Below are positions 1 through 64,000 of a stretch of DNA of 64,000 bases, piece by piece. Position numbers and translations under genes: made by a program. Numbering within the stretch: position 1 is the first letter of the stretch; each line of letters opens with the position of its first letter. Source of the DNA: Eledone cirrhosa (Eukaryota); assembly GCA_964016885.1 (NCBI GenBank), contig OZ024746.1, positions 51,150,001 through 51,214,000 of the forward strand, written 5' to 3'. The notes below the pieces were generated by a model. That model was not told the DNA's origin and searched no databases. It was given only the letters and a program-made list of their open reading frames with translations.

Positions 1-366
1 TACTGTCTAGCGAAACCAAAGCCAAGGGAGCGGGCTTGGCTGGATCAATGAGATTGCCACTGTCCCTATCTACTCTCTAGCGCAACCACAGCCAATGGAA
101 CGAGCTTGGACGGAATAACGAGATTTTCACTGTCCCTGTCTACTGTCTAGCCAAACCACAGCTACGGGAACGAGCTTGGACGGATCAACGAGATTGCCAC
201 TGTCCCTATCTACTGTCTATCTACTGTCTAGCGAAACCACAGCCAAGGGAATGAGCTTGGACGGATCAACGTGATTGCCACTGTCCTTATCTACTGTCTA
301 GAGAAACCACAGTCAACGGAACGAGCTTGGGTGGATCAACGAGATTACCACTGTACCTATCTACTG

Positions 367-400
<34 letters not shown>

Positions 401-2394
401 CTGGATCAATGAGATTGCCACTTTCCCTATCAACTGTCTAGCGAAACCACAGCCAAGGGAACGAACTTGGACGGATCAACGAGATTGCCACTGTCTTTAT
501 CTACTGTCTAGCGAAACCACAGCCAAGGGAACGAGCTTGGACGGATCAACGAGATTGCCACTGTCTTTATCTACTCTCTAGCGAAACCACAGTCAACGGA
601 ACGAGCTTGGGTGGATCAACGAGATTGACACTGTGCCTATCTACTGTCTAGCGAAACCACAGAGAAGGGAACGAGCTTGGACGGATCAACGAGATTGCCA
701 CTGTCCCTATCTACTGTCTAGCGAAACGACAGCCAAGGGAACGGACTTGGGTGGATCAACGAGATTGCCACTGTCCCTATCTACTGTCTAGCGAAACCAC
801 AGCCAAGGGAACGAACTTGGACGGATCAACGAGATTGCTACTGCCCCTATCTACTGTCTAGCGAAACCACAGCTAAGGGAACTAGCTTGGACGGATCAAC
901 GAGATTGCCACTGACCCTATCTTCTGTCTAGCGAAACCACAGACAAGGGAACGGGCGTGGCTGGATCAATGATATTGCCACTGTCGCTATCAACTGTCTA
1001 GCGAAACCACAGCCAAGGAAACGAACTTGGACGGATCAACGAGATTGCCACTGCCCATATCTACTGTCTAGCGAAACTACAGCCAAGGGAACGAGATTGG
1101 ACGGATCAACGAGATTGCCACTGACCCTATCTTCTGTCTAGCGAAACCACAGATAAGGGAACGAGCTTGGCCGGATCAACGAGATTGCCACTGTCCCTAT
1201 CTACTGTCTAGCGAAACCACAGCCAAGTGAATGGTCCTGGGTGGATCAACGAGTTTGCCACTGTCCCTATCTACTGTCTAGCCAAACCAAAGCCAAGGGA
1301 ACGAGCTTGGGTGGATCAACGAGATTGACACTGTCCCTATCTACTGTCTAGCGAAACCACAGCCAAGTGAATGGCCTTGGGTGTATCAACGAAATTGCCA
1401 CTGTCCCTATCTACTGTCTAGCGAAACTACAGCCAATGGAACGAGATTGGACGGATCAACGAGATTGCCACTGTCCTTATCTACTGTCTAGATAAGCCAC
1501 AGTCAAACGGAACGAGCTAGGGTGGATCAACAAAATTGCCACTGTCCCTATCTAATGTCTAGCGAAACTACAGCCAAGGGAACGGGCGTGGCTGGATCAA
1601 TGATATTGCCACTGTCGCTATCAACTGTCTAGCGAAACCACAGCCAAGGAAACGAACTTGGACGGATCAACGACATTGCACTGTCCCTATCTACTGTCTA
1701 GCGAAACCACAGCCAAGGGAACGAGCTTGGACGGATACACGAGATTGACACTGTCCTTATCTAGAGTCTAGCGAAACCACAGTCAACGGATAGAGCTTTG
1801 GTGGATCAACGAGATTGTCAGTGTGCCTATCTACTGTCTAGCAAAACCACAGCCAAAGAAACGGGCTTTGCTGGATCAACGAGATTGCCACTGTCCCTAT
1901 CTACTGTCTAGCGAAACCACAGCCAAGGGAACGAGCTTGGACGGACCAACGAGATTGCCACTGTCCTTATCTACTGTCTAGAGAAGCCACAGTCAACGAA
2001 ACGAGCTAGGGTGGATCAACAAAATTGCCACTGTCCCTATCTAATGTCTAGCGAAACTACAGCCAAGGGAACGGGCGTGGCTGGATCAATGATATTGCTA
2101 CTGTCGCTATCAACTGTCTAGCTAAACCACAGCCAAGGAAACGAACTTGGACGGATCAACGACATTGCACTGTCCCTATCTACTGTCTAGCGAAACCACA
2201 GCCAAGGGAACGAGCTTGGACGGATAAACGAGATTGGCACTGTCCTTATCTAGTGTCTAGCGAAACCACAGTCAGCGGAACGAGCTTGGGTGGATCAACG
2301 AGATTGCCACTGTCCCTATCTACTGGCTAGCGAAATCACAGCCAATGGAACGGGCGTGGCTGTTCAACAAGAATGCCACTGTCGCTATCTACTG

Positions 2395-2428
<34 letters not shown>

Positions 2429-3801
2429 CTGGATCAACAAGATTGCCACTGTCCTTATCTACTGTCTAACCAAACAAAAGCCAAGGGAACGGACTTGGTA
2501 CAATCGACGAGATTGCCACTGAACCTATCTACTGTCTAGCGAAACCACAGCCAAGGGAACGAGCTTGGACGGATCAACGAGATTGCCACTGTCCTTATCT
2601 ACTGTCTAGAGAAACCACAGTCAACGGAACGAGCTTGGGTGGATCAACGAGATTGCCACTGTCCCTATCTACTGTCTAGCGAAACCACAGCCAAGAGAAC
2701 GAGCTTGGACGGAATAACGAGATTGCCACTGTCCCTATCTACTGTCTATCTACTGTCTAGCGAAACCACAGCCAAGGGAATGAGCTTGGACGGATCAACG
2801 AGATTGCCACTGTCCTTATCTACTGTCTAGAGAAACCACAGCTAAGGGAACGAGCTTGGACGGATCAACGAGATTGCCGGTGTCCCTATCTACTGTCTAG
2901 CGAAACCACAGCCAAGGGAACGAGCTTGGACGGATCAACGAGATTGCCACTGTCCTTATCTACTGTCTAGAGAAACCACAGTCAACGGAACGAGCTAGGG
3001 TGGATCAACGAGATTGCCACTGTCCCTATCTAATGTCTAGTGAAACCACAGCCAAGGGAACGGGCGTGGCTGGATCAATGATATTGCCACTGTCGCTATC
3101 TACTGTCTAGCGAAACCAAAGCCAAGGGAGCGGGCTTGGCTGGATCAATGAGATTGCCACTGTCCCTATCTACTCTCTAGCGCAACCACAGCCAATGGAA
3201 CGAGCTTGGACGGAATAACGAGATTTTCACTGTCCCTATCTACTGTCTAGCCAAACCACAGCTACGGGAACGAGCTTGGACGGATCAACGAGATTGCCAC
3301 TGTCCCTATCTACTGTCTATCTACTGTCTAGCGAAACCACGGCCAAGGGAATGAGCTTGGACGGATCAACGTGATTGCCACTGTCCTTATCTACTGTCTA
3401 GAGAAACCACAGTCAACGGAACGAGCTTGGGTGGATCAACGAGATTACCACTGTACCTATCTACTGTCTAGCGAAACTACAGCCAAGAGAACGGGCTTGG
3501 CTGGATCAATGAGATTGCCACTTTCCCTATCAACTGTCTAGCGAAACCACAGCCAAGGGAACGAACTTGGACGGATCAACGAGATTGCCACTGTCTTTAT
3601 CTACTGTCTAGCGAAACCACAGCCAAGGGAACGAGCTTGGACGGATCAACGAGATTGCCACTGTCTTTATCTACTCTCTAGCGAAACCACAGTCAACGGA
3701 ACGAGCTTGGGTGGATCAACGAGATTGACACTGTGCCTATCTACTGTCTAGCGAAACCACAGAGAAGGGAACGAGCTTGGACGGATCAACGAGATTGCCA
3801 C

Positions 3802-12293: not shown

Positions 12294-13690
12294 CTGGATC
12301 AACCAGATTGCCACTGTCCTTATCTACTGTCTAGACAAACAAAAGCCAAGGGAACGGCCTTGGGTGGATCAACGAGATTGCCACTGTCCCTATCTACTGT
12401 CTAGAGAAATTACAGTGAACGGAACGAGCTTGGGTGGATCAACGAGATTGCCACTGTCCCTATCTATTGTCTAGCGAAACCACAGCCAAGGGAACTAGCT
12501 TGGACGGATCAACGAGATTGCCACTGTCCTTATCTACTGTCTAGAGAAACCACAGTCAACGGAACGAGCTTGGGTGGATCAACGAGATTGCCACTGTCCC
12601 TATCTACTGTCTAGCGAAACCACAGCCAAGAGAACGAGCTTGGACGGAATAACGAGATTGCCACTGTCCCTATCTACTGTCTATCTACTGTCTAGCGAAA
12701 CCACAGCCAAGGGAACGAGCTTGGACGGATCAACGAGATTGCCACTGACCCTATCTACTGTCTAGCGAAAACACAGACAAGGGAACGAGCTTGGACGCAT
12801 CAACCAGATTGCCACTGTCCCTATCTACTGTCTATCTACTGTCTAGCGAAACCACAGCCAAGGGAACGAGCTTGGACGGGTCAACGAGATTGCCACTGTC
12901 CTTATCTACTGTCTAGAGAAACCAGAGTCAACGGAAGGAGCTTGGGTGGATCAACGAGATTACCACTGTCCCTATCTACTGTGTAGCGAAACCACAGCCA
13001 AGAGAACGAGCTTGGAAGGAATAACGAGATTGCCACTGTCCCTATCTACTGTCTATCTACTGTCTAGCGAAACCACAGCCAAGGGAACGAGCTTGGACGG
13101 ATCAACGAGATTGCCACTGTCCTTATCTATTGTCTAGAGAAACCACAGCTAAGGGAACGAGCTTGGACGGATCAACGAGATTGCCACTGACCCTTTCAAC
13201 TGTCTAGCGAAACCACAGCCAAGGAAACGAACTTGGACGGATCAACGACATTGCACTGTCCCTATCTACTGTCTTGCGAAACCACAGACAAGGGAACGAG
13301 CTTGGACGGATCAACGAGATTGCCACTGTCCTTATCTACTATCTAGCGAAACCACAGTCAACGCAACGAGCTTGGGTCGATCAACGAGATTGCCACTGTC
13401 CCTATCTACTGTCTAGCGAAACGAGAGCCTAGGGAACGGGCATGACTGGATCAATGAGATTGCCACTGTCCCTATCTACTGTCTAGCGAAACCACAGACA
13501 AGGGAACGAGCTTGGACGGATCAACGAGATTGCCACTGTCCTTATCTACTGACTAGAGAAACCACAGTCAACGGAACGAGCTTGGGTGGATCAACGAGAT
13601 TACCACTCTCCCTATCTACTGTCTAGCGAAACCACAGCCAAGGGAACGGGCGTGGCTGGATCAACGAGTTGCCACTGTCGCTATCTACTG

Positions 13691-13724
<34 letters not shown>

Positions 13725-15367
13725 CTGGATCAATGAGATTGCCTCTGTCCCTATCAACTGTCTAGCGAAACCACAGCCAAGGAAACGAACTTGGACGGAT
13801 CAACGACATTGCACTGTCCCTATCTACTGTCTAGCGAAACCACAGCCAAGGGAACGAGCTTGGACGGATCAACGAGATTGCCACTGTCCTTATCTACTAT
13901 CTAGCGAAACCACAGTCAACGGAACGAGCTAGGGTGGATCAACGAGATAGCCACTGTGCCTATCTACTGTCTAGCGAAACCACAGCCAAGGGAAGGGGCA
14001 TGACTGGATCAATCAGATTTCCACTGTCCCTATCTACTGTCTAGCGAAACCACAGACAAGGGAACGAGCTTGGACGGATCAACGTGATTGCCACTGTCCC
14101 TATCTACTGTCTAGCGAAACCACAGCCAAGGGAACGAAATTGGACGGATCAACGAGATTGCCACTGCACTTATCTACTGTCTAGCGAAACTAGAGCCAAG
14201 GGAACGAGCATGGACGGAATAACGAGATTGCCACTGTCCCTATCTTCTGTCTAGCGAAACCACAGACACGGGAACGAGCTTGGCCGGATCAACGAGATTG
14301 CCACTGTCCTTATCTACTGTTTAGCGAAACCGCAGCCGAGTGAATGGTCTTGGGTGGATCAACGAGATTGCCACTGTCCCTATCTACTGTCTAGCCAAAC
14401 CAAAGCCAAGGGAACCGCCATGGGTGGATCAACGAGATTGCCACTGTCACTATCTACTGTCTAGAGAAAACACAGTCAACGGAACGAGCTTGGGTGGATC
14501 AACGAGATTGCCACTGTCCCTATCTACTGGCTAGCGAAATCACAGCCAATGGAACGGGCGTGGCTGTTCAACAAGAATGCCACTGTCGCTATCTACTGTC
14601 TAGCGAAACCACAGCCAAGTGAATGGTCTTGGCTGGATCAACAAGATTGCCACTGTCCTTATCTACTGTCTAGCCAAACAAAAGCCAAGGGAACGGCCTT
14701 GGGTGGATCAACGAGATTGCCACTGTCCCTATCTACTGTCTAGAGAAACTACAGTGAACGGAACGAGCTTGGGTGGATCAACGAGATTGCCACTGTCCCT
14801 ATCTATTGTCTAGAGAAACCACAGCCAAGGGAACGAGCTTGGACGGATCAACGAGATTGCCACTGTCCTTATCTACTGTCTAGAGAAACCACAGTCAACG
14901 GAACGAGCTTGGGTGGATCAACGAGATTGGCACTGTCCCTATCTACTGTCTAGCGAAACCACAGACAAGGGAATGAGCTTGGACGGATCAACGAGATTGC
15001 CACTGTCCCTATCTACTGTCTAGCAAAACTACAGCCAAGGGAACGAACTTGGACGGAATAACGAGATTGCCACTGTCCCTATCTTCTGTCTAGCGAAACC
15101 ACAGCTAAGGGAACGAGCTTGGACGAATCAACGTGATTGCCACTGACCCTATCTTCTGTCTAGCGAAACCACAGACAAGGGAACGAACTTGGCCTGATCA
15201 ACGAGATTGCCACTGTCCCTATCTACTGTCTAGCCAAACTAAAGCCAAGGGAACCGCCTTGGGTGGATCAACGAGATTGCCACTGTCCCTATCTACTGTC
15301 TAGCGAAACGACAGCCAAGGGACGGACTTGGGTGGATCAACGAGAATGCCACTCTCGCTATCTACTG

Positions 15368-15401
<34 letters not shown>

Positions 15402-16690
15402 CTGGATCAACAAGATTGCCACTGTCCTTATCTACTGTCTAGCCAAACAAAAGCCAAGGGAACGGCCTTGGGTGGATCAACGAGATTGCCACTGTCTCTA
15501 TCTACTGTCTAGCGAAACTACAGCCAATGGAACGAGCTTGGACGGAATAACGAGATTGCCACTGTCCCTTTCTACTGTCTAGCGAAACCACAGCTAAGGG
15601 AACGGACTTGGTACAATCGACGAGATTGCCACTGAACCTATCTACTGTCTAGCGAAACCACAGCCAAGGGAACGAGCTTGGACGGATCAACGAGATTGCC
15701 ACTGTCCCTATCTACTCTCTAGCGAAACCACAGCCAAGTGAATGGTCTTGGCCGTACCAACGACATTGCCACTGTCCCTATCTACTGTCTAACCAAACCC
15801 AAGCCAAGGGAACGAGCTTGGGTGGCTCAACGAGATTGACACTGTCCCTATCTACTGTCTAGAGAAATTACAGTGAACGGAACGAGCTTATGTGGAACAA
15901 CGAGATTGCCGCTGTCCCTATCTATTGTCTAGCGAAACCACAGCTAAGGGATCGGACTTGGTACAATCGACGAGATTGCCACTGAAATTATCTACTGTCT
16001 AGCGAAACCACAGCCAAGGGAGCGAGCTTGGACGGATCAACGAGATTGCCACTGTCCTTATCTACTGTCTAGCGAAACCACAGTCAACGGAACGAGCTTG
16101 GGTGGATCAACGAGATTGCCACTGTCCCTTTCTAATGTCTAGCTAAACCACAGCCAAGAGAACGGGCTTGGGTGGATCAACGAGATTGCCACTGTCTCTA
16201 TCTACTGTCTAGCGAAACCACAGCTAAGGGAACGAGCTTGGACGGATCAACGAGATTGCCACTGACCCTATCTTCTGTCTAGCGAAACCACAGACAAGGG
16301 AACGAGCTTGGCCGGATCAACGAGATTGCCACTGTCCTTATCTACTGTCTAGCGAAACCACAGTCAACGGAACGAGCTTGGGTGGATCAACGAGATTTCC
16401 ACTGTGCCTATCTACTGTCTAGCAAAACCACAGACAAGGTAACGGGCTTGGCTGGATCAACGAGATTGACACTGTCGTTATCTATTGTCTAGCGAAACCA
16501 CAGCCAAGGGAACGAGTATGACTAGATCAATGAGATTGCCACTGTCCCTATCTACTGTCTAGCGAAACCACAAACCAGGGAACGAGCTTGGACGGATCAA
16601 TGAGATTTCCACTGTCCCTATCTACTGTCTAGCGAAACCACAGCCAAGTGAATGGTCTTGGGTGGATCAACGAGACTGCCACTGTCCCTA

Positions 16691-18097: not shown

Positions 18098-18131
<34 letters not shown>

Positions 18132-45675: not shown

Positions 45676-45709
<34 letters not shown>

Positions 45710-48700
45710 CTGGATCAACAAGATTGCCACTGTCCTTATCTACTGTCTAGCCACACCAAAGCCGAGGGAACGGCCTTGGGTGGATCAACGAGATTGCCAC
45801 TGTCCCTATCAACTGTCTAGCGAAAACACAGACAAGGGAACGAGCTTGGACGGATCAACGAGATTGCCTCTGCCCCTATCTACTGTCTAGCCAAACCGAA
45901 TCCAAGGGAACCGCCTTGGGTGGATCAACGAGATTGCCACTGTCCCTATCTACTGTCTAGCGAAACCACAGCCAATGGAACGAGCTTGGACGGAATAACG
46001 AGATTGCCACTGTCCCTATCTACTGTCTAGCGAAACCACAGCTAAGAGAACGGGCTTGGGTAAATCCACGAGATTGCCACTGTCCCTATCTTCTGTCTAG
46101 CAAAACCACAGACCAGGGAACGAGCTTGGACGGATCAACGAGATTGCCACAGTCCCTATCTACTGTCTAGCGAAACCACAGCCAAGTGAACCGCCTTTGG
46201 TGGATCAACGAGATTGCCACTGTCCCTATCTACTGTCTAGCGAAACCACAGCCAAGGGAACGGACGTGGCTGGATCAATGATAATGCCGCTGTCGCTATC
46301 TACTGTCTAGCGAAACCACAGCTAAGGGAGCGGGCTTGGCTGGATCAATGAGATTGCCACTGTCCCCATGTACTGTCTAGCGAAACTACAGCCGACTGAA
46401 CGTGCTTGGACGGAATAACGAGATTGCCACTGTCCCTATCTACTGTCTAGCGATGCCACAGCTAAGGGAAAGAGCTTGGACGGATCAACGAGATTGCCAC
46501 TGACCCTATCTACTGTCTAGCAAAAACACAGAGAAGGGAACGAGCTTCGACGGATCAAAGAGATTGCCACTGTCCCTATCTTCTGTCTAGAGAAACCACA
46601 GTCAACGGAACGAGCTTGGGTGATTCAACGAGATTGCCACTGTCCCTATCTACTGGTTAGCGAAACCACAGCCAATGGAACGGGCGTGGCTGTTCAACGA
46701 GAATGCCACTATCGCTATCTACTGTCTAGCGAAACCACTGCCAAGGGAACGGGCTTGGCTGGATCAACAAGATTGCCACTGTCCTTATCTACTGTCTAGC
46801 CAAACCAAAGCCAAGGGAACGGCCTTGGGTGGATCAACGAGATTGCCACTGTCCCTATCTACTGTCTAGCGAAACTACATCCAAGGGAACGGGCTTGGAC
46901 GGAATAACGAGATTGCCACTGTCCCTATCTACTGTCTAGCGAAACCACAGCCAAGGGAACGAGCTTGGACGGATCAACGAGATTGCCACTGTCCTTATCT
47001 ACGGTCTACCGAAACTACAGCCAATGGAACGATCTTGGACGGAATAACGAGATTGCCACTGACCCTATCTACTGTCTAGCGAAAACACAGACAAGGGAAC
47101 GAGCTTGGACGGATGAATGAGATTGGCACTATCCCTATCTACTGTCTAGCGAAACGACAGCCATGGGAACGGGCTTGGGTGGATCAACGAGATGGCCACT
47201 GTCCCTATCTACTGTCTAGCGAAACGACAGCCAAGGGAACGGACTTGGGTGGATCAACGAGATTGCCACTGTCCCTCTCTACTCTCTAGCGTAACCACAG
47301 CCAAGTGACCGGGCTTGGGTGGATCAACGAGATTGCGACTGCCCCTATCTACTGTCTAGCGAAATTACAGCCAAGGGAACGAGCTTGGACGGAATAACGA
47401 GATTGCCACTGTCCCTATCTACTGTCTAGCGTAACCACAGCCAAGGGAACGGACTTGGTTGGATCAACGAGATTGCCACTGAACCAATCTACTGTCTAGC
47501 GAAACCACAGCCAAGGGAACAAGCTTGGACGGATCAACGAGATTGCCACTGTCCTTATCTACTGTCTTGCGAAACCACAGCCAATGGAATGATCTTGGAC
47601 GGAATAACGAGATTGCCACTGTCCCTATCTCCTGTCTAGCGAAACCACAGCCAAGGGAACGAGCTTGGACGGATCAACGAGAGTGCCACTGTCCCTATCT
47701 ACTGTCTAGCGAAACCACAGCTAAGGGAACGAGCTTGGACGGATGAACGAGATTGGCACTGTCCCTATCTACTGTCTAGCCAAACCCAAGCCAAGGGAAC
47801 GAGCTTGGCTGGATCAACGAGATTGACACTGTCCCTATCTACTGTCTAGAGAAACTACAGTGAACGGAACGAGTTTGGGTGGATCAACGAGATTGCCACT
47901 GTCCCTATCTATTGTTTAGCGAAACCACAGCCAAGGGAACGGACTTGGTACAATCGACGAGATTGCCACTGAACTTATCTACTGTCTAGCGAAACCACAG
48001 CCAAGGGAGCGAGCTTGTACGGATCAACGAGTTTGCTACTGTCCTTATCTACTGTCTAGCGAAACCACAGTCAACGGAACGCGCTTGGGTGGATCAACGA
48101 GATTGCCACTGTCCCTCTCTAATGTCTAGCGAAAACACAGCCAAGAGAACGGGCTTGGGTGGATCAACGAGATTGCCACTGTCCCTATCTACTGTCTAGC
48201 GAAACCACAGTCAACGGAACGAGCTTGGGTGGATCAACGAGATTGCCACTGTGCCTATCTACTGTCTAGCAAAACCACAGCGAAGGAAACGGGCTTGGCT
48301 GGATCAACGAGATTACCACTGTCGCTATCTATTGTCTAGCGAAACCACAGCCAAGGGAGCGGGCATGACTGGATCAATGAGATTGCCATTGTCCCTATCT
48401 ACTGTCTAGCGAAACGACAGCCATGGGAACGGGCTTGGGTGGATCAACGAGATTGCCACTGTCCCGATCTACTGTCTAGCGAAACGACAGCCTTGGGAAC
48501 GGGCTTGGGTGGATCAACGAGATTGCCACTGACCCTATCTACTGTCTAGCGAAACCACAGCCAAGGGAACGAACTTGGACGGATCAACGAGATTGCCACT
48601 GTCCCTATCTACTGTCTAGCGAAGCCACAGACAAGGGAACGAGCATGGATGGATCAACGAGATTGCCACTGTCCTTATCTACTGTCTAGAGAAACCACAG

Positions 48701-48823
48701 TCAACAGAACGAGCTTGGGTGGATCAACGAGATTGCCACTGTCCCTATCTACTGGCTAGCGAAACCACAGTCAATGGAACGGGCGTGGCTGTTCAACGAG
48801 AATGCCACTGTCCCTATCTACTG

Positions 48824-48857
<34 letters not shown>

Positions 48858-50080
48858 CTGGATCAACAAGATTGCCACTGTCCTTATCTACTGTCTAGCC
48901 ACACCAAAGCCGAGGGAACGGCCTTGGGTGGATCAACGAGATTGCCACTGTCCCTATCAACTGTCTAGCGAAAACACAGACAAGGGAACGAGCTTGGACG
49001 GATCAACGAGATTGCCTCTGCCCCTATCTACTGTCTAGCCAAACCGAATCCAAGGGAACCGCCTTGGGTGGATCAACGAGATTGCCACTGTCCCTATCTA
49101 CTGTCTAGCGAAACCACAGCCAATGGAACGAGCTTGGACGGAATAACGAGATTGCCACTGTCCCTATCTACTGTCTAGCGAAACCACAGCTAAGAGAACG
49201 GGCTTGGGTAAATCCACGAGATTGCCACTGTCCCTATCTTCTGTCTAGCAAAACCACAGACCAGGGAACGAGCTTGGACGGATCAACGAGATTGCCACAG
49301 TCCCTATCTACTGTCTAGCGAAACCACAGCCAAGTGAACCGCCTTTGGTGGATCAACGAGATTGCCACTGTCCCTATCTACTGTCTAGCGAAACCACAGC
49401 CAAGGGAACGGACGTGGCTGGATCAATGATAATGCCGCTGTCGCTATCTACTGTCTAGCGAAACCACAGCTAAGGGAGCGGGCTTGGCTGGATCAATGAG
49501 ATTGCCACTGTCCCCATGTACTGTCTAGCGAAACTACAGCCGACTGAACGTGCTTGGACGGAATAACGAGATTGCCACTGTCCCTATCTACTGTCTAGCG
49601 ATGCCACAGCTAAGGGAAAGAGCTTGGACGGATCAACGAGATTGCCACTGACCCTATCTACTGTCTAGCAAAAACACAGAGAAGGGAACGAGCTTCGACG
49701 GATCAAAGAGATTGCCACTGTCCCTATCTTCTGTCTAGAGAAACCACAGTCAACGGAACGAGCTTGGGTGATTCAACGAGATTGCCACTGTCCCTATCTA
49801 CTGGTTAGCGAAACCACAGCCAATGGAACGGGCGTGGCTGTTCAACGAGAATGCCACTATCGCTATCTACTGTCTAGCGAAACCACTGCCAAGGGAACGG
49901 GCTTGGCTGGATCAACAAGATTGCCACTGTCCTTATCTACTGTCTAGCCAAACCAAAGCCAAGGGAACGGCCTTGGGTGGATCAACGAGATTGCCACTGT
50001 CCCTATCTACTGTCTAGCGAAGCTACATCCAAGGGAACGGGCTTGGACGGAATAACGAGATTGCCACTGTCCCTATCTAC
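43861..50080 (+). repeat. Tandem duplication of a 3148-bp (45-monomer, minus 2 bp) block, with a third more diverged partial copy at ~51800-54350
   Basis: Identical ORF pairs at 45626/48774 and 46675/49823. The markers 'ggtaaatccacg' and 'gccgactgaacgtg' each occur in three copies. Confidence 0.88.
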
Positions 50081-53000
50081 AGTCTAGCGAAACCACAGCT
50101 AAGGGAACGAGCTTGGACGGATCAACGAGATTGCCACTGTACCTATCTACTGTGTAGCGAAACCACAACCAAGTGAATGGTTTTGTCTGGGCCAACGACA
50201 TTGCCACTGTCCCTATCTACTGTCTAGCCCAACCAAAGCCAAGGGAACGAGCTTGGGTGGATCAACGAGATTGACACTGTCCCTATCTACTGTCTAGAGA
50301 AACTACAGTGAACGGAAAAAGCTTGGGTGGATCAACGAGATTGCCAATGTCTCTATCTATTGTCTAGCGAAACCACAGCCAAGGGAACGGACTTGGTTGA
50401 ATCGACGAGATTGCCAATGTCGCTATCTACTGTCTAGCGAAACCACAGCCAAGGGAACTGGCTTGGCTGGATCAATGAGATTGGCACTTTCCCTATCAAC
50501 TCTCTAGCGAAACCACAGCCAAGGGAACGAGCTTGGACGGATCAACGAGATTGACACTGTCCTTATCTACTGTCTAGCGAAACCACAGTCAACGGAACGA
50601 GCTTGGGTGGATCAACGAGATTGCCACTGTCCCTATCTACTGTCTAGCGAAACCACAGCCAAGGGAACGGGCGTGGCTGGATCAACGAGATTGCCACTGT
50701 CGCTATCTACTGTCTAGCGAAACCACAGCCAAGGGAGCGGGCATGACTGGATCAATGAGATTGCCACTGTCCCTATCTACTGTCTAGCGAAAACACAGAC
50801 AAGGGAACGAGCTTGGACGGATCAACGAGATTGCCACTGTCCCTATCTACTGTCTAGCGAAACCACAGCCATGGGAACGGGCTTGGTGGATCAACGAGAC
50901 TGCCACTGTCCCTATCTACTGTCTAGCGAAACGACAGCCAAGGGAACGGACATGGGTGGATCAACGAGATTGCCACTGTCCCTCTCTACTGTCTAGCGTA
51001 ACCACAGCCAAGAGAATGGGCTTGGGTGAATCAACGAGATTACCCCTGTCCCTATCTACTGTCTAGCGAATCCACAGCCAAGGGAACGAACTTGGACGGA
51101 TCAACGAGATTGCCACTGCCCCTATCTACTGTCTAGCGAAACCACAGCCAAGAGAACGGGCTTGGGTGGATCAACGAGATTGCCACTCTCCCTATCTATT
51201 GTCTAGCGAAACCACAGCCAAGGGAACGAACTTGGACGGATCAACGAGATTGCCACTGTCCCTATCTACTGTCTAACGAAACCACAGCCAAGGGAGCGAG
51301 CTTGGACGGATCAACGAGATTGCCACTGTCGTTATCTACTGTCTAGCGAAACCACAGTGAACGGAACGAGCTTGGGTGGATCAACGAGATTGCCACTGTG
51401 CCTATTTACTGTCTAGCAAAACCACAGCCAAGGAAACGGGCTTGGCTGGATCAACGAAATTGCCACTGTCGCTATCTTTTGTCTAGCGAAACCACAGCCA
51501 AGGGAACGGGCATGACTGGATCAATGAGATTGCCATTGTCCCTATCTACTGTCTAGCGAAACGACAGCCATGGGAACGGGCTTGGGTGGATCAACGAGAT
51601 TGCCACTGTCCCTATCTACTGTCTAGCGAAACGGAATCCAAGGGAACCGCCTTGGGTGGATCAACGAGATTGCCACTGTCCCTATCTACTGTCTAGCGAA
51701 ATCACAGCCAAGGGTACGAGCTTGGACGGATAAACGAGATTGCCACTGTCCTTATCTACTGTCTAGCGAAACTACAGCCAATGGAACGATCTTGGACGGA
51801 ATAACGAGATTGCCACTGTCCCTATCTACTGTCTAGCGAAACTACAGCCAATGGAACGATCTTGGACGGAATAACGAGATTGCCACTGACCCTATCTACT
51901 GTCTAGCAAAAACACAGACAAGGGAACGAGCTTAGACGGATGAATAAGATTGGCACTGTCCCTATCTACTGTCTAGCGAAACGACAGCCATGGGAACGGG
52001 CTTGGGTGGATCAACAAGATTGCCACTGTCCCTATCTACTGTCTAGCGAGACGACAGCCAAGTGAACGGGCTTGGGTGGATCAACGAGATATCGACTGCC
52101 CCTATCTACTGTCTAGCGAAATTACAGCCAAGGGAACGAGCTTGGACGGAATAACGAGATTGCCACTGTCCCTATCTACTGTCTAGCGTAACCACAGCCA
52201 AGGGAACGGACTTGGTTGGATCAACGAGATTGCCACTGAACCAATCTACTGTCTAGCGAAACCACAGCCAAGGGAACAAGCTTGGACGGATCAACGAGAT
52301 TGCCACTGTCCTTATCTACTGTCTAGCGAAACCACAGCCAAGGTAACGAGCTTGGACGGATCAACGAGAGTGCCACTGTCCCTATCTACTGTCTAGCGAA
52401 ACCACAGCTAAGGGAACGAGCTTGGACGGATGAACGAGATTGGCACTGTCCCTATCTACTGTTTAGCCAAACCCAAGCCAAGGGAACGAGCTTGGTTGGA
52501 TCAACGAGATTGACACTGTCCCTATCTACTCTCTAGAGAAACTACAGTGAACGGAACGAGCTTGGGTGGATCAACGAGATTGCCACTTTCTCTATCTATT
52601 GTTTAGCGAAACCACAGACAAGGGAACGGACTTGGTACAATCGACGAGATTGCCACTGAACTTATCTACTGTCTAGCGAAACCACAGCCAAGGGAGCGAG
52701 CTTGGACGGATCAACGAGTTTGCTACTGTCCTTATCTACTGTCTAGCGAAACCACAGTCAACGGAACGCGCTTGGGTGGATCAACGAGATTGCCACTGTC
52801 CCTCTCTAATGTCTAGCGAAAACACAGCCAAGAGAACGGGCTTGGGTGGATCAACGAGATTGCCACTGTCCCTATCTACTGTCTAGCGAAACCACAGTCA
52901 ACGGAACGAGCTTGGGTGGATCAACGAGATTGCCACTGTGCCTATCTACTGTTTAGCAAAACCACAGCCAAGGAAACTTGCTTGGCTGGATCAACGAGAT

Positions 53001-53372
53001 TGCCACTGTCGCTATCTATTGTCTAGCGAAACCACAGCCAAGGGAGCGGGCATGACTGGATCAATGAGATTGCCATTGTCCCTATCTAGTGTCTAGCGAA
53101 ACGACAGCCATGGGAACGGGCTTGGGTGGATCAACGAGATTGCCACTGTCCCGATCTACTGTCTAGCGAAACGACAGCCATGGGAACGGGCTTGGGTGGA
53201 TCAACGAGATTGCCACTGACCCTATCTACTGTCTAGCGAAACCACAGCCAAGGGAACGAGCATGGATGGATCAACGAGATTGCCACTGTCCTTATCTACT
53301 GTCTAGAGAAACCACAGTCAACAGAAGGAGCTTGGGTGGATCAACGAGATTGCCACTGTCCCTATCTACTGG

Positions 53373-53405
<33 letters not shown>

Positions 53406-55099
53406 CTGGATCAACAAGATTGCCACTGTCCTTATCTACTGTCTAGCCACACCAAAGCCGAGGGAACGGCCTTGGGTGGATCAACGAGATTGCCACTGTC
53501 CCTATCTACTGTCTAGCGAAAACACAGACAAGGGAACGAGCTTGGACGGATCAACGAGATTGCCTCTGCCCCTATCTACTGTCTAGCCAAACCGAATCCA
53601 AGGGAACCGCCTTGGGTGGATCAACGAGATTGCCACTGTCCCTATCTACTGTCTAGCGAAACCACAGCCAATGGAACGAGCTTGGACGGAATAACGAGAT
53701 TGCCACTGTCCCTATCTACTGTCTAGCGAAACCACAGCTAAGAGAACGGGCTTGGGTAAATCCACGAGATTGCCACTGTCCCTATCTTCTGTCTAGCAAA
53801 ACCACAGACCAGGGAACGAGCTTGGACGGATCAACGAGGTTGCCACAGTCCCTATCTACTGTCTAGCGAAACCACAGCCAAGTGAACCGCCTTTGGTGGA
53901 TCAACGAGATTGCCACTGTCCCTATCTACTGTCTAGCGAAACCACAGCCAAGGGAACGGACGTGGCTGGATCAATGATAATGCCGCTGTCGCTATCTACT
54001 GTCTAGCGAAACCACAGCCAAGGGAGCGGGCTTGGCTGGATCAATGAGATTGCCACTGTCCCCATGTACTGTCTAGCGAAACTACAGCCGACTGAACGTG
54101 CTTGGACGGAATAACAAGATTGCCACTGTCTCTATCTACTGTCTAGCGATGCCACAGCTAAGGGAAAGAGCTTGGACGGATCAACAAGATTGCCACTGTC
54201 CTTATCTACTGTCTAGCCAAACCAAAGCCAAGGGAACGGCCTTGGGTGGATCAACGAGATTTCCACTGTCCCTATCTACTGTCTAGCGAAACTACATCCA
54301 AGGGAACGGGCTTGGACGGAATAACGAGATTGCCACTGTCCCTATCTACTGTCTAGCGAAACCACAACCAAGTGAATGGTTTTGTCTGGGCCAACGACAT
54401 TGCCACTGTCCCTATCTACTGTCTAGCCAAACCAAAGCCAAGGGAACGAGCTTGGGTGGATCAACGAGATTGACACTGTCCCTATCTACTGTCTAGAGAA
54501 ACTACAGTGAACGGAAAAAGCTTGGGTGGATCAAAGGAGATTGCCAATGTCCCTATCTATTGTCTAGCGAAACCACAGCCAAGGGAACGGACTTGGTTGA
54601 ATCGACGAGATTGCCACTGTCGCTATCTACTGTCTAGCGAAACCACAGCCAAGGGAACTGGCTTGGCTGGATCAATGAGATTGCCACTTTCCCTATCAAC
54701 TCTCTAGCGAAACCACAGCCAAGGGAACGAGCTTAGACGGATCAACGAGATTGCCACTGTCCTTATCTACTGTCTAGCGAAACCACAGTCAACGGAACGA
54801 GCTTGGGTGGATCAACGAGATTGCCACTGTCCCTATCTACTGTGTAGCGAAACCACAGCCAAGGGAACGGGCGTGGCTGGATCAACGAGATTGCCACTGT
54901 CGCTATCTACTGTTTAGCGAAACCACAGCCAAGGGAACGGGCATGACTGGATCAATGAGATTGCCACTGTCCCTATCTACTGTCTAGCGAAAACACAGAC
55001 AAGGGAACGAGCTTGGACGGATTAACGAGATTGCCACTGTCCCTATCTACTGTCTAGCGAAACCACAGCCATGGGAACGGGCTTGGTGGATCAACGAGA

Positions 55100-58000
55100 C
55101 TGCCACTGTCCCTATCTACTGTCTAGCGAATCCACAGCCAAGGGAACGAACTTGGACGGATCAACGAGATTGCCACTGCCCCTATCTACTGTCTAGCGAA
55201 ACTACAGCCAAGGGAACGAGCTTGGACGGAATAACGAGATTGCCACTGTCCCTATCTTCTGTCTAGCGAAACTACAGCCAAGTGAATGGTCTTGGGTGGA
55301 TCAACGAGATTTCCACTGCCCCTATCTGCTGTCTAGCCAAACCAAAGCCAAGGGAATCGCCTTGGGTGGATCAACGAGATTGTCACTGTCCCTATCTACT
55401 GTCTAGCGAAACCACAGCCAAGGGAACGAGCTTGGACGGATCAACGAGATTGCCACTGTCCTTATCTACTGTCTAGAGAAACCACAGTCAACCGAACGAG
55501 CTTGGGTGATTCAACGAGTTTGCCACTGTCCCTATCTACAGTCTAGCGAAATCACAGCTAAGGGAACGAGCTTGGACGGATCAACGAGATTGCCACTGAA
55601 GCTATCTTCTGTCTAGCGAAACCACAGACAAGGGAACGAGCTTGGCCGGATCAACGAGATTGCCACTGTCCCTATCTACTGTCTAGCGAAACCAAAGCCA
55701 AGTGAATGGTCTTGGGTGGATCAACGAGATTGCCACTGTCCCTATCTACTGTCTAGCCAAACCAAAGCCAAGGGAACCGCCTTAGGTGGATCAACGAGAT
55801 TGCAACTGTCCCTATCTACTGTCTAGCGAAACTACATCCAAGGGAACGAGCTTGGACGGAATAACGAGATTGCCACTGTCCCTATCTACTGTCTAACCAA
55901 ACCACAGCTAAGGGAACGAGCTTGGACGGATCAACGAGATTGCCACTGACGCTATCTACTGTCTAGCGAAACCACAGCCAAGTGAATGGTTTTGGGTGGA
56001 TCAACGAGATTGCCACTGTCCCTATCTACTGTCTAGAGAAACCACCGTCAATGGAACGAGCTAGGGTGGATCAACGAAATTGCCACTGTCCCTATCTATT
56101 GTCTAGCGAAACCACAGCCAAGGGAACGGGCGTGGCTGGATCAACGAGATTGCCACTGTCGCTATCTACTGTCTAGCGAAACCACAGCAAAGGGAACGAG
56201 CTTGGACGGAATAACGGGATTGCCACTGTCCTTATCTACTGTCTAGAGAAACCACAGTCAACCGAACGAGCTTGGGTGATTCAACGAGTTTGCCACTGTC
56301 CCTATCTACAGTCTAGCGAAATCACAGCTAAGGGAACGAGCTTGGACGGATCAACGAGATTGCCACTGAAGTTATCTTCTGTCTAGCGAAACCACAGACA
56401 AGGGAATGAGCTTGGCCGGATCAAAGAGATTGCCACTGTCCCTATCTACTGTCTAGCGAAACCAAAGCCAAGTGAATGGTCTTGGGTGGATCAACGAGAT
56501 TGCCACTGTCCCTATCTACTGTCTAGCCAAACCAAAGCCAAGGGAACCGCCTTAGGTGGATCAACGAGATTGCAACTGTCCCTATCTACTGTCTAGCGAA
56601 ACTACATCCAAGGGAACGAGCTTGGACGGAATAACGAGATTGCCACTGTCCCTATCTACTGTCTAGCGAAACCACAGCCAAGGGAACGGACTAGGTTCGA
56701 TCAACGAGATTGCCACTGAACCTATCTACTGTCTATCGAAACCACAGCCAAGGGAACGAGCTAGGACGGATCAACGAGATTGCCACTGTCCTTATCTACT
56801 GTCTAGAGAAACCACAGTCAACGGAACGAGCTTGGGTGGATAAACGAGATTGCCACTGTACCTATCGACTGTCTAGCGAAACCACAGCCAAGGGAACGGG
56901 CGTGGCTGGATCAACGAGATTGCCACTGTCGCTATCTACTGGCTAGCGAAACCACAGCCAAGGTACCGAGCTTGGACGGATCAACAAGATTGCCACTGTC
57001 CTTATCTAGTGTTTAGCGAAACCAAAGCCAAGGGAACGGGCTTGGACGGATCAACGAGATTGCCACTGTGCCTATCTACTGTCTAGCGAAACCACAGCCA
57101 ATGGAACGATATTGGACGGATCAACGAAATTGCCACTGTCCCTATCTACTGTCTAGCGAAACCACAGCCAAGGGAACGAACTTGGACGGATCACCGAGTT
57201 AGCCACTGCCTCTATGTACAGTCTAGCGAAACTACAGCCAAGGGAACGAGCTTGGACGGAATAACGGGATTGCCACTGTCCCTATCTACTGTCTAGCCAA
57301 ACCACAGCTAAGGGAACGAGCTTGGACGGAATAACGAGATTGCCACTGTCCCTATCTACTGTCTAGCGAAACCACAGCCATGGGAACGGACTAGGTTGGA
57401 TCAACGAGATTGCCACTGAACCTATCTACTGTCTATCGAAACCACAGCCAAGGGAACGAGGTTGGACGGATCAACGAGATTGCCACTGTCCTTATCTACT
57501 GTCTAGAGAAACCACAGTCAACGGAACGAGCTAGGGTGGATCGTCGAGACTGCCACTGTCCCTATCTAATGTCTAGCGAAACAATAGCTAAAGGAACGGG
57601 CGTGGACGGATCAACGAGATTACCACTGACCCTATCTACAGTCTAGCGAAACCACAGCCAAAGGAACCAGCTTGCCACTGTCCCTATCTACTGTCTAGCG
57701 AAACCACAGCCAAGTGAATGGTCTTGGCTGAATCAACGAGATTGCCACCGTCCCTATCTACTGTCTAGCCAAACCAAAGCCAAGGGAACGAGCTTGGCTG
57801 GATCAACTAGATTGACACTGTCCCTATCTACTGGCGAGAGAAACCACAGTCAACGGAACGTGCTTGGGTGGATCAACGATATTGCCACTGTCCCTATCTA
57901 TTGTCTAGCGAAACCACAGCCAAGGGAACGGACTTGGTTGAATCGTCGAGATTACTACTGAACCGATCTACTGTTTAGCGAATCCACAGCCAAGGAAACG

Positions 58001-58743
58001 AGCTTGGACGGATCAACGAGATTGCCACTGTCCTTATCTACTGTCTAGAGAAACCACGGTCAACGGAACGAGCTTGGGTGGATAAACGGGATTGCCACTG
58101 TACCTATCTACTGTCTAGCGAAACCACAGCCAAAGGAACGAGATTGGCTGGATCAATGAGATTGCCACTGTCCCTATCTACTGTCTAGCGAAACCACAAC
58201 CAAGGGAACGAACTTGGACGGATCAACGAGTTTGCCACTGCCCCTATCTATTGTCTAGAGAAACCACAGTCAATGGAACGAGCTTGGGTGGATCAACGAG
58301 ATTGCCACTGTCCCTATCTATTGTCTAGCGAAACCACAGCGAAGGGAACGTGCGTGGCTGGATCAATAAGATTGCCACTGTCGCTATCTACTGTCTAGCG
58401 AAACCGCAGCCAAGGGAACGAGCTTGGACGGAATAACGGGATTGCCACTGTCCCTATCTACTGTCTAGCCAAACCACAGCTAAGGGAACGAGCTTGGCCG
58501 GATCAACGAGATTGCCACTGTCCCTATCTACTGTCTAGCGAAACCACAGCCAAGGGAACGAGCTTGGACGGATCGACGAGATTTCCACTGTCCTTCTCTA
58601 CTGTCTAGAGAAACCACAGTCAATGGAACCAGCTAGGTTGGATCAACGAGATTGCCACTGTCCCTATCTAATGTCTAGCGAAACAACAGCCAAGGGAACA
58701 GGCGTGGCTGGATCAACGATATTGCCACTGTCGCTATCTACTG

Positions 58744-58777
<34 letters not shown>

Positions 58778-60892
58778 CTGGATCAATGAGATTGCCACTG
58801 TCCCTATCTATTGTCTAGCGAAACCACAGCCAAGGGAACGAACTTGGACGGATCAACGAGATTGCCACTGTCCCTATCTACTGTCTAGCGAAACCACAGC
58901 CAAGAGAACGGGCTTGGGTGAATCAACGTGATTGCCACTGTCCCTATCTACTGTCTAGAGAAACCACAGACAAGGGAACGAGCTTGGCCGGATCAACGAG
59001 ATTGCCACTGTCCTTATCTACTGTCTTGCGAAACCACAGCCAAGTGAATGGTCTTGGGTGGATCAATGAGATTGCCATTGTCCCTATCTACTATCTAGCC
59101 AAACCAAAGCCAAGGGAACCGCCTTAGGTGGATCAACGAGATTGCCACTGTCCCTATCTACTGTCTAGCGAAACCACAGCTAAGCGAACGAGCTTGGACG
59201 TATCAACGAGATTGCCACTGTCCTTATCTACTGTCTAGAGAAACCACAGTCAGCGGAACGAGCTAGGGTGGATCATCGAGACTGCCACTGTCCCTATCTA
59301 ATGTCTAGCGAAACAACAGCCAAGGGAACGGGCGTGGCTGGATCAACGATATTGCTACTGTCGCTATCTACTGTCTAGCGAAACCACAGCCACGGGAACG
59401 AACTTGGACGGATCAACGAGATTGCCACTGTCCCTATCTACTGTCTAGCGAAACTACAGCCAAGGGAACGAGCTTGGACGGATCAACGAGATTGCCACTG
59501 ACCCTATCTACAGTCTAGCGAAACCACAGCCAAGGGAACCAGATTGCCACTGTCCCTATCTACTGTCTAGCGAAACCACAGCCAAGTGAATGGTCTTGGC
59601 TGAATCAACGAGATTGCCACCGTCCCTATCTACTGTCTAGCCAAACCAAAGCCAAGGGAACGAGCTTGGGTGGATCAACTAGATTGACACTGTCCCTATC
59701 TACTGGCAAGAGAAACCACAGTCAACGAAACGTGCTTGGGTGGATCAACGATATTGCCACTGTCCCTATCTATTGTCTAGCGAAACCACAGCCAAGGGAA
59801 CGGACTTGGTTGAATCGTCGAGGTTGCTACTGAACCGATCTACTGTCTAGCGAATCCACAGCCAAGGGAACGAGCTTGGACGGATCAACGAGATTGCCAC
59901 TGTCCTTATCTACTGTCTAGAGAAACCACGGTCAACGGAACGAGCTTGGGTGGATAAACGAGATTGCCACTGTACCTATCTACTGTCTAGCGAAACCACA
60001 GCCAAGGGAACGGGATTGGCTGGATCAATGAGATTGCCACTGTCCATATCTACTGTCTAGCGAAACCACAACCAAGGGAACGAACTTGGACGGATCAACG
60101 AGTTTGCCACTGCCCCTATCTATTGTCTATAGAAACCACAGTCAATGGAACGAGCTTGGGTGGATCAACGAGATTGCCACTGTCCCTATCTATTGTCTAG
60201 CGAAACCACAGCAAAGGGAACGGGCTTAGCTGGATCAATTAGATTGCCACTGTCCCAATCTACTGTCTAGCGATACCGCAGCCAAGGGAACGAGCTTGGA
60301 CGGAATAACGGGATTGCCACTGTCCCTATCTACTGTCTAGCCAAACCACAGCTAAGGGAACGAGCTTGTACGGATCAACGAGATTGCTACTGACCCTATC
60401 TCCTGTCTAGCGAAATCACAGACAAGGGAACGAGCTTGGCCGGATCAACGAGATTGCCACTGTCCCTATCTACTGTCTAGCGAAACCACAGACAAGGGAA
60501 CGAGCTTGGCCGGATCAACGATTGCCACTGTCCCTATCTACTGTCTAGCGAAACCACAGCCAAGTGAATGGTCTTGGGTGGATCAACGATATTGCCACTG
60601 TCTCTATCTACTATCTAGCCAAACCAAAGCCAAGGGAACCGCCTTATGTGGATCAACGAGATTGCCACTGTCCCTATCTACTGTCTAGCGAAACCACAGC
60701 CAAGGGAACGAGCTTGGACGTATCAACGAGATTGCCACTGTCCTTATCTTCTGTCTAGAGAAACTACAGTCAACGGAACGAGCTTGGGTGATTCAACGAG
60801 ATTGCCACTGTCCCTATCAACTGGTTAGCGAAACCACAGCCAATGAAATGGGCGTGGCTGTTCAACGAGAATGCCACTGTCGCTATCTACTG

Positions 60893-60926
<34 letters not shown>

Positions 60927-61994
60927 CTGGATCAACAAGATTGCCACTGTCCTTATCTACTGTCTAGCCAAACCAAAGCCAAGGGAACGGCCTTGGGTGG
61001 ATCAACGAGATTGCCACTGTCCCTATCTACTGTCTAGCGAAACTACAGCCAAGGGAACGAGCTTAGACGGAATAACGAGATTGCCACTGTCCCTATCTAC
61101 TGTCTATCGAAACCACAGCCAAGGGAACGAGCTTGGACGGATCAACGAGATTGCCACTGTCCTTATCTACTGTCTAGAGAAACCACAGTCAACGGAACGA
61201 GCTAGGGTGGATCATCGAGATTGCCACTGTCCCTTTCTAATGTCTAGCTAAAAAACAGCCTAGGGAACGGGCGTGGCTGGATCACCGATATTGCCACTGT
61301 CGCTAACTACTGTCTAGCAAAACCACAGCCAAGGGAACGGGCTTGGCTGGATCAATGAGATTGCCACTGTCCCTATCTACTGTCTAGCGAAACCACAGCC
61401 AAGGGAACGAACATGGACGGATCAACGAGATTGCCACTGACCCTATCTACAGTCTAGCGAAAACACAGACAAGGGAACCAGCTTGCCACTGTCCCTATCT
61501 ACTGTCTAGCGAAACCACAGCCATGTGAATGGTCTTGGCTGGATCAACGAGATTGCCACTGTCCCTATCTCCTGTCTAGCCAAACCAAAGCCAAGGGAAC
61601 GAGCTTGGGTGGATCAACGAGATTGACACTGTCCCTATCTACTGGCTAGAGAAACCACAGTCAACGGAACGAGCTTGGTGGATCAACGAGATTGCCACTG
61701 TCCCTATCTATTGTCTAGTGAAACCACAGCCAAGGGATCGGACTTGGTTGAATCATCGAGATTGCTACTGAACCGATCTACTGTCTAGTGAATCCACAGC
61801 CAAGGGAACGAGCTTGGACGGATCAACGAGATTGCCACTGTCCTTATCTACTGTCTAGAGAAACCACAATCAACGGAACGAGCTTGGGTGGATAAATGAG
61901 ATTGCTACTGTACCTATCTACTGTCTAGCGAAACCACAGCCAAGGGAACGGGCGTGGCTGGATCAACGAGATAGCCACTGTCGCTATCTACTGG

Positions 61995-62027
<33 letters not shown>

Positions 62028-63740
62028 CTGGATCAATGAGATTGCCACTGTCCCTGTCTACTTTTTAGCGAAACCACAGCCAAGGGAACGAACTTGGACG
62101 GATCAACGAGTTTTCACTGCCCCTATGTACAGTCTAGCGAAACTACAGCCAAGGGAACGAGCTTGGACGGAATAACGGGATTGCCACTGTCCCTATCTAC
62201 TGTCTAGCCAAACCACAGCTAAGGGAACGAGCTTGGACGGATCAACGAGATTGCCACTGACCCTATCTACTGTCTAGTGAAACCACAGACAAGGGAACGA
62301 GCTTGGCCGGATGAAAGAGATTGCCACTGTCGCTATCTACTGTCTAGAGAAACCACAGTCAATGGAACGAGCTTGGGTGGATCAACAAGATTGCCACTGT
62401 CCCTATCTATTGTCTAGCGAAACCACAGCGAAGGGAACGGGCGTGGCTGGATCAACGAGATTGCCACTGTCGCTATCTACTGTCTAGCGAAACCACAGCA
62501 AAGGGAACGGGCTTGGCTGGATCAATGAGATTGCCACTGTCCCTATCTAGTGTCTAGCGAAACCGCAGCCAAGGGCACGAGCTTGGACGGAATAACGGGA
62601 TTGCCACTGTCCCTATCTACTGTCTAGCCAAACCAGAGCTAAGGGAACGAGCTTGGACGGATCAACGAGATTGCCACTGACCCTGTCTTCTCTCTAGCGA
62701 AACCACAGACAAGGGAACGACCTTGGCCGGATCAACGAGTTTGCCACTGTCTCTATCTACTGTCTAGCCAAACCAAAGCCAAAGGAACGGCCTTCGGTGG
62801 ATCAACGAGATTGAGACTGTCCCTATCTACTGTCTAGCGCAACCACAGCCAAGAGAACGGGCTTGGGTGGATCAACGAGATTGCCACTGAACCTATCTAC
62901 TGTCTAGCGAAACCACAGCCAAGGGAACGAACTTGGACGGATCAACGAGATTGCCACTGTCCTTATCTACTATCTAGACGAACCACAGTCAACGGAACGA
63001 GCTCGGGTGGCTCAACGAGATTCCCACTGTCCATATCTACTGTCTAGCGAAACCACAGCCAAGTGAACGAACTTGGACGGATCAACGAGATGGCCACTGT
63101 CCCTATCTACTGTCTAGCCAAACCACAGCCAAGGGAACGAGCTTGGACGGATCAACGAAATTGCCACTGACCCTATCTACTGCCTAGTGAAACCACAGAC
63201 AAGGGAACGAGCTTGGCCGGATCAACGAGATTGCCACTGTTCCTATCTACTGTCTAGCGAAACCACAGCCAAGTGAATGGTCTTGGGTGGATCAACGAGA
63301 TTGCCACTGTCCCTATCTACTGTCTAGAGAAACCACAGTTAATGGAACGAGCTTGGTTGGATCAACGAGATTGCCACTGTCCCCATCTATTGTCTAGCGA
63401 AACCACAGCCAAGTGAACGGGCGTGGCTGTTTAACGAGATTGCCACTGTCGCTATCTAGTGTCTAGCGAAACCACAGCCAACCGAACGTGCTTGGCTGGA
63501 TCAACGAGATTGCCACTGTCCCTATCTACTGTCTAGCTAAAACAAAGCCAAGGGAACGCTTTGGGTGTATCAATGAGATTCCCACTGTCACTATCTACTG
63601 TCTAGCGCAACCACAGCCAAGGGAACGGCTTTGGGTGGATCAACGAGTCTGACACTGCCCCTCTCTACTGCCTAGCGAAACCACAGCCAAGGGAACGTGC
63701 GTGGCTGGATCAACGAGATTGCCACTGTCCCTATCTACTG

Positions 63741-63774
<34 letters not shown>

Positions 63775-64000
63775 CTGGATCAATGAGATTGGCACTGTCC
63801 CTATCTACTGTCTAGCGAAACCACAGCCAAGGGAACGAAGCTGGACGGATCAACGAGATTGCCACTGCCTCTATCTACTTTCTAGTGAAACTACAGCCAA
63901 GGGAACGAGCTTGGGTGGATCAACGAGTTTGACACTGTCCCTCTCTACTGTCTAGCGAAACCACAGCCTAGAGAACGGGATTGGGTGGATCAACGAGATT
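55100..64000 (+). repeat. Right sub-domain: more diverged monomers, ~1.9-kb period marked by 52-bp deletion monomers
   Basis: An 18-bp deletion monomer at ~57665, 59537 and 61476. More private substitutions toward 64000 (visual impression). The left boundary is approximate. Confidence 0.75.

Follow-up and report, generated by a model that had tools for sequence, protein, structure and literature searches.

A single-locus 272-kb satellite built from a 70-bp piece of the host 28S rRNA gene within a putative orphan R2/28S fragment of Eledone cirrhosa

The window analysed here is a stretch of 64,000 bp (G000:C6:51,150,001-51,214,000) of Eledone cirrhosa contig OZ024746.1, and it lies wholly within one satellite array, the 70-bp unit of which is a piece of the host's own 28S ribosomal RNA (rRNA) gene. 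It is probable that this array, a single one of 272 kb, formed inside the ends of an orphan fragment in which sequence of the retroelement R2 is joined to 28S, that it was born by duplication at a 7-bp repeat and grew by local block duplication, and that it is a neutral satellite. The array is real, and is a new variety of satellite derived from ribosomal DNA (rDNA).

The window is entirely one plus-strand tandem array with a GC content of ~50 %, flat throughout. Tandem Repeats Finder (TRF) reports 877.5 + 36.1 copies of the 70-bp unit at 84 % match, and a script places 910 monomer starts, three of them covering two units, with a spacing of 70 bp in 857/909 cases; a preliminary description, made from the sequence letters alone, had counted about 915 copies of one 70-mer, in good agreement with these values. 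Its attribution of the monomer to a conserved segment of the large subunit (LSU) rRNA is borne out as well. The Rfam model LSU_rRNA_eukarya matches the unit with an E-value of 7.4e-07 and 35.8 bits, short of the Rfam gathering score of 50 owing to the small size of the piece; the match ends at model position 2388. The unit thereby corresponds to approximately model positions 2320-2389, which fits the numbering of the preliminary description, and spans 3′ helix strands and one hairpin; these we take to be helices H71-H73. Alignment to the host's own 28S identifies the genome's own variant of this gene as the source, with 68/70 identical positions for the best copy in the window and 67/70 for the copy singled out previously (Table 1). 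The array consensus likewise agrees with host 28S at 68/70 positions, the differences being C15G and position 70, at which the two junction types split.

Mapped in full, the array contains 3,354 exact 70-bp spacings, no N and no foreign insert of at least 25 bp. Monomer statistics rest on 3,881 aligned monomers, with six intervals of >100 bp left out. Mean identity is 90.2 % when monomers are compared with host 28S, 91.5 % with the consensus and 85.9 % for pairs drawn at random, and distinct sequences account for 2,172 of the 3,881. Two exact junction patterns match 1,130+8 and 987+3 times genome-wide, and the counts within the array region are identical. As far as such exact patterns reach, which could miss diverged arrays elsewhere, the satellite is a single locus on one of 1,796 contigs. 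Searching the 3.0-Gb genome with one monomer returned the array and single matches elsewhere, and those fetched (seven of the eight listed) are all 28S genes or fragments. The array lies near the midpoint of its 102.6-Mb contig and outside the rDNA transcription unit, as 74 kb of flanks hold no Rfam match and a BLAST search with host rDNA around the array finds only a 34-bp remnant on the right side and nothing past the remnant on the left. With a short unit homologous to host rDNA repeated head to tail over a long distance, it is rDNA-derived satellite DNA.

Both ends of the array preserve what appears to be the founding fragment. The left 28S piece, 41 bp long, begins exactly at the R2 insertion site, with non-rRNA sequence upstream of it, and the two 28S flanks stand in their original order and orientation around the array. 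At the left flank the R2-site junction is identical to that of the R2 encoding a reverse transcriptase (RT) at locus L005, and to that of other inserts. Alignments of this flank were scored against 11 of the 22 R2-site loci (eight of lineage B and three of lineage A), with the lineage-B 3′ ends reaching scores of 37-64 at the eight loci, where shuffled sequences average 25-27 and 0/200 shuffles attain each score. A lineage-A R2 was rejected as the parent, the alignment failing to reach significance at 3/3 lineage-A loci. No RT or endonuclease open reading frame (ORF) adjoins the left flank in a tblastn search, the sole significant match being a reverse-strand RT of 24 % identity, 23 kb off. 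As judged from sequence, the left flank is a remnant of an R2 3′ end and not an intact R2. Because R2-like and 28S flanks bracket the array, and no ORF or further rDNA adjoins them, the array can be placed within an orphan R2/28S fragment of ~0.5 kb. The preliminary description had noted an absence of flanking rDNA, which is true of the window; the array as a whole does have 28S flanks, 165 kb to the left and 43 kb to the right of the window. Likewise, its suggestion that a fragment of an rRNA gene was amplified is strengthened by the preservation of that fragment at the array ends.

Past the 34-bp match on the right, ~16 nt more (C6:51,257,574-51,257,590) can be set against host 28S with five transitions and a gap, and two of these differences match, by eye, the state of the Rfam consensus. 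The founder fragment may stem from an older 28S allele.

With regard to the origin of the 70-bp period, the sequence ACGGATC occurs twice in host 28S, 70 bp apart, and brackets exactly the satellite unit. Within the 200 bp that follow the R2 site no other direct repeat is as long, and in host 28S repeats of at least 7 bp are found at just 0.13 % of start/period pairs (periods 40-150). At both of its positions the host departs from the Rfam consensus, which suggests that the repeat is lineage-derived. Were the two copies to misalign, the expected junction would be ...CTTGG-ACGGATC-AACGAG, and this sequence is present in 987+3 exact copies, every one of them in the array.

The growth of the array has left an irregular pattern. 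Identity between monomers is flat at 0.860-0.865 for lags of 1-30, and identical pairs make up at most 3 % at every lag up to 399. With these flat values and irregular block periods, a regular higher-order repeat was rejected, and the mature higher-order structure proposed in the preliminary description gives way to irregular block duplications. Duplicated blocks of at least 12 monomers number 99 and reach 57 units in length; the 45 longest blocks listed are 0-0.9 % diverged with irregular periods. An 11-bp duplication that creates 81-bp monomers, 18 of them in the whole array, marks duplicated blocks; these 11-bp duplications were also considered as target-site duplications of R1, and rejected as such, their registers not ending at +14 (by eye). 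The sharing of near-identical monomers decays with distance. Monomer 1 keeps the host C15, and C15G is found in 3,553 of the 3,881 monomers. Host-type C15 occurs in 99/1,601 edge monomers versus 10/2,280 core monomers, the boundary between the two having been set after the profile was seen, and C15 copies are also nearer the host at other positions (6.5 % versus 8.6 % divergence). Because block sharing decays with distance, and C15 monomers are concentrated at the edges and less diverged, growth fits unequal exchange that left old copies stranded at the edges. The pattern also fits the two-stage model of array growth summarised in PMC5932611 (here and below, statements from the literature refer to the available passages of the sources cited).

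The course of events that we consider probable would begin with the departure from the rDNA of ~0.5 kb, comprising the 3′ untranslated region (UTR) of a lineage-B R2 and ~170-190 bp of downstream 28S. The fragment itself survives at the array ends; its route would have been either retrotransposition of an R2 read-through transcript or displacement of a piece of DNA, with little to choose between the two. Misalignment between the two ACGGATC copies, which are still to be seen in host 28S, would then have produced a dimer. Unequal exchange or local tandem duplication of blocks of 1-4 kb would account for the block pattern observed, an early C15G variant sweeping the interior and host-like copies staying near the edges. 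Finally, the array would decay neutrally and give no rRNA.

A number of observations weigh against this sequence of events. The first duplication is itself reconstructed, and identical ends would result from a 70-bp circle that had formed at this microhomology, undergone rolling-circle amplification and re-entered the fragment by recombination. A DNA search of the genome with the left flank returns only the flank itself, and the parent R2 subfamily was not found; the flank is related only distantly to the R2-B 3′ UTRs now in the genome, and the final 20-25 nt of these are missing from it. Next to the founder, neither a target-site duplication nor an RT remnant was identified. The right junction is short by ~70 bp and is not a clean in-register end. 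Moreover, the flanking 28S is less diverged than the average monomer, with 1/41 differences on the left and 0/34 on the right, the latter an end picked by the match itself, versus 9.8 %. The late choice of the edge/core boundary for the C15 count belongs here too.

The circle is the foremost rival. Under this explanation, the 7-bp repeat was the site at which 70 bp of 28S were excised as a circle; rolling-circle replication then multiplied the unit, recombination brought it into the orphan, and local duplications occurred later. The same junction and the same flanks are predicted, and the dominance of one derived variant, C15G, is what a burst from a single template would give; however, less diverged copies with C15 are scattered through both edges, indicating at least two founder types, only one locus exists although circles would be expected to seed more, and the present structure is one of local block duplication. 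Such an origin is thus unlikely. An assembly artefact built from rDNA reads is scarcely credible, despite the fact that one sample alone in the run index holds much of the array and is possibly the assembly's own source. Against it stand the diversity of the monomers (2,172/3,881 distinct, 85.9 % mean pairwise identity), the structured domains and diverged block duplications, and the three runs that hold 43-56 % of sampled array words. In addition, a second sample contributes four reads that align to the unique left flank at ≥99 %, with 0 reads in the other three runs, which is a weak indication since three of the four runs are reduced-representation.

As to function, a centromere or pericentromere of the chromosome, maintained by selection, might be suspected from an array that is large, uninterrupted, recently active and near the midpoint of its contig, with other satellites within 1-2 Mb, and the preliminary description had spoken of a centromeric-type satellite. 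A centromeric satellite would, however, be expected on several or all chromosomes, and all exact junction matches fall in one array on 1/1,796 contigs, which has no regular higher-order repeat. Local satellite enrichment was rejected as a sign of a centromere, satellites being as frequent elsewhere on the contig (6/33 near samples versus 3/20 controls, Fisher p=1.0). Methylation-type CpG decay was likewise rejected (C>T 0.051 at CpG versus 0.043 elsewhere, G>A 0.042 versus 0.064), a signature the absence of which carries little weight in an invertebrate. Overall, the centromeric interpretation is very improbable. Still less probable is that the array is a decoy, diverting retroelements that target 28S, or that it supplies small RNA homologous to 28S which helps in silencing inserted rDNA units. 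Every monomer covers the R1 site position, 60 bp past the R2 site, and the R1 position on the bottom strand is no more than ~1 nt away from the right junction (both by PMC2718515, in part); R2-type inserts occupy most assembled 28S copies, with 1/22 half-sites uninserted, and the internal inversion could yield double-stranded RNA. Despite this, there are no inserts in the ~3,890 copies and no R1-site inserts in the 21 other 28S pieces reaching that site, the R2 site itself is outside the monomer, and no RNA run exceeds 0.10 of sampled array words, as compared with 0.43-0.56 for the three runs of one sample mentioned above. Runs at 0.06-0.10 of words are probably ordinary rRNA, and are no evidence for the array. 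Selection of an rRNA-like kind on the hairpin was also rejected, 5/5 pairs being kept only at shuffle level and stem divergence standing at 8.1 % versus 8.6 % elsewhere. As hairpin pairing, CpG decay, element insertions, local satellite density and RNA runs revealed no function, the array is most likely neutral.

Elsewhere in the genome, host 28S copies were located through DNA and pattern searches, and 22 exact downstream R2 half-sites are present. The 22 R2-site loci besides the array comprise three of lineage A, 17 with lineage-B sequence, one with a short insert and one intact. One lineage-A locus has an intact RT ORF of 1,214 aa, and lineage-B loci carry either ORF remnants ~50 % identical to A or a 1.2-kb non-coding insert, which resembles the SIDEs described in PMC3414825. 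An insert of this ~1.2-kb type, with an R2 lineage-B 3′ end, lies at the R2 site in most assembled 28S copies (Table 1). Loci L064, L067 and L070, which count in favour of the course of events proposed above, are similar orphans, R2-B remnants at dispersed sites, with 785, >1,000 and 49 bp of downstream 28S, respectively; upstream 28S is absent from all three within the 5.3 kb fetched, and L069 has both flanks. It is conceivable, though less likely than not, that R2 read-through retrotransposition scatters downstream 28S genome-wide, and that one such scrap, primed by the lineage-specific 7-bp repeat, became the 272-kb satellite.

Several R2-associated loci have complex structures of their own. 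L004 (300-5030) has a lineage-A R2 nested behind a lineage-B 3′ end at the R2 site, and L005 (1-5042) and L007 have duplicated upstream 28S pieces there. An orphan lineage-A R2 at L068 has an inverted 5′ part including upstream 28S, followed by rearranged 28S pieces. L063 (C1:80.95 Mb) is a diverged rDNA orphan; its R2 site carries just a short insert, which may be what a failed insertion left behind.

Comparison with known systems indicates both what is familiar and what is new about this array. No description of this satellite, or of any short-monomer satellite from the 28S core, was found in the literature, mostly open and consulted as main texts. A 2025 review counts the spacers of rDNA among the sources of satellites, with 5S added in its references, and '28S' is absent from its available text (PMC12692304). 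Satellites from the intergenic spacer (IGS) are known in tomato (PMC2679016), with potato, Vicia and Phaseolus cited in PMC12692304. The tomato case is similar in that the satellite grew by segmental duplication from a modified rDNA copy, the substrate being a unit interrupted by a retroelement, but its monomer had already existed as an IGS subrepeat, and coding sequence was eliminated (PMC2679016). Unlike IGS satellites, the 28S array has as its monomer a single-copy piece of conserved 28S core, which needed de novo duplication. Satellites derived from 5S, as in Hoplias, the frog PcP190 and the Plantago B chromosome (among the references of PMC12692304), share a monomer from rRNA coding sequence; however, the 5S gene is a short tandem unit from the outset, and there are centromeric examples among these satellites, whilst the 28S array is of large-subunit origin and confined to a single locus.

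In Bembidion beetles, copy-number inflation of 28S coding regions has been reported, in three species of 'a conserved region of 28S', and fluorescence in situ hybridization (FISH) places the inflated 28S-like DNA of B. lividulum outside the nucleolus organizer region (NOR) (bioRxiv 10.1101/2020.01.03.894527); rDNA-derived satellite DNA is also mentioned for a Bembidion subgenus (PMC13277930). That evidence differs in consisting of read depth and FISH, is multi-chromosomal in B. lividulum, and in the main-text passages comes with no monomer, junction or founding locus, although the supplements could name the region. Lamprey Germ1, for which Strange and Moore 2019 is also cited, is alike in that sequence derived from R2, linked to truncated 28S at the R2 site, was amplified as a repeat (PMC9734144, PMC5381345). 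As far as these sources are available, it differs in being multi-kb, somatically eliminated and located at rDNA loci, with a 200-bp tandem repeat outside the 28S part; in the 28S array only 70 bp of 28S was amplified and the R2 part is single. The novelty of a 28S-core satellite is thus somewhat lower than the preliminary description suggested, since amplified 28S-like DNA outside the NOR was already known from beetles and lampreys. The R1 tandem array of Drosophila and SINE28 are further examples of retroelement activity bringing 28S into a repeat outside functional rDNA (PMC5932611, PMC10946416), yet the former repeats the element together with 33 nt of rDNA (PMC5932611) and the latter is a 28S-derived retroposon (PMC10946416), as opposed to pure 28S in tandem. 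Chromatin immunoprecipitation for CenH3 in Tribolium lists a 28S rDNA-like cluster without further detail (PMC7598501, in part).

The birth of a satellite from single-copy sequence is usually unobservable, the founding context being lost. In the present case the slow-changing 28S gene, which the genome still contains, gives an almost exact record of the ancestral monomer, and the unit-setting microhomology, both original flanks and older edge copies are visible together. The array therefore permits direct tests of slippage versus rolling circle, of mutation rate in the array versus its flanks, and of the layering of edge and core. It extends the known satellite sources to the conserved 28S core and, with ~3,900 28S-like copies, would bias estimates of rDNA copy number and interfere with FISH probes and primers taken from this region. 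Should the read-through account be true, a retroelement-driven route would lead from the conserved 28S core to a new satellite, with the layers of seed, trigger and growth all intact.

Table 1. Positions of the array, its flanks and internal landmarks, and loci with the non-coding R2-site insert
Feature	Position	Strand	Description	Source or context
70-bp 28S-derived satellite, window share	window 1..64000	+	~914 copies	TRF, script, genome search
Sample monomer	window 3783..3852	+	67/70 vs host 28S unit, +42..+111 from R2 site	
Recent block duplication, example	window 1..3800	+	first 700 bp repeated 3,100 bp further on, 4 mismatches	
11-bp duplication (81-bp monomers)	window 206-230, 2735-2759, 3306-3330 + 8 more			TRF, script
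18-bp deletion (52-bp monomers)	window 57551-57796, 59485-59590, 61361-61607		block marker	TRF, script
Whole array	G000:C6:50,985,443-51,257,536		272,094 bp, 3,888 monomer starts (~3,890 x 70 bp)	
Inverted block within array	C6:51,215,234-51,217,194		1,961 bp, only inversion	outside window
Left flank	directly left of monomer 1		~360 bp R2 lineage-B 3′ UTR-like, then 41 bp 28S	outside window
Right flank	C6:51,257,540-51,257,573		34/34 bp downstream 28S	follows partial last monomer
Loci listed with ~1.2-kb insert	L001, L002, L065, L066, L071-L073, L075-L077			R2 site of 28S

The immediate surroundings of the founder fragment contain, just to its left (C6:50,984,750-50,985,020), what is presumably a tRNA-type short interspersed element (SINE) and, just to its right (C6:51,257,980-51,258,450), a reverse-strand fragment that we take to be transposase-like. 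Unrelated satellites occur further along C6, with units of 86 bp at 51.9 and 52.1 Mb (L017, L096), 42-45/177 at 52.7 and 53.0 Mb (L097, L098), 275/421 at 50.3 and 50.45 Mb (L011, L090), 68 at 3.0 Mb (L103) and 69 bp at 72.0 Mb (L116). Kinship of seven other C6 satellite samples with rDNA or with the 70-bp monomer was rejected, as no BLAST match to either was obtained.

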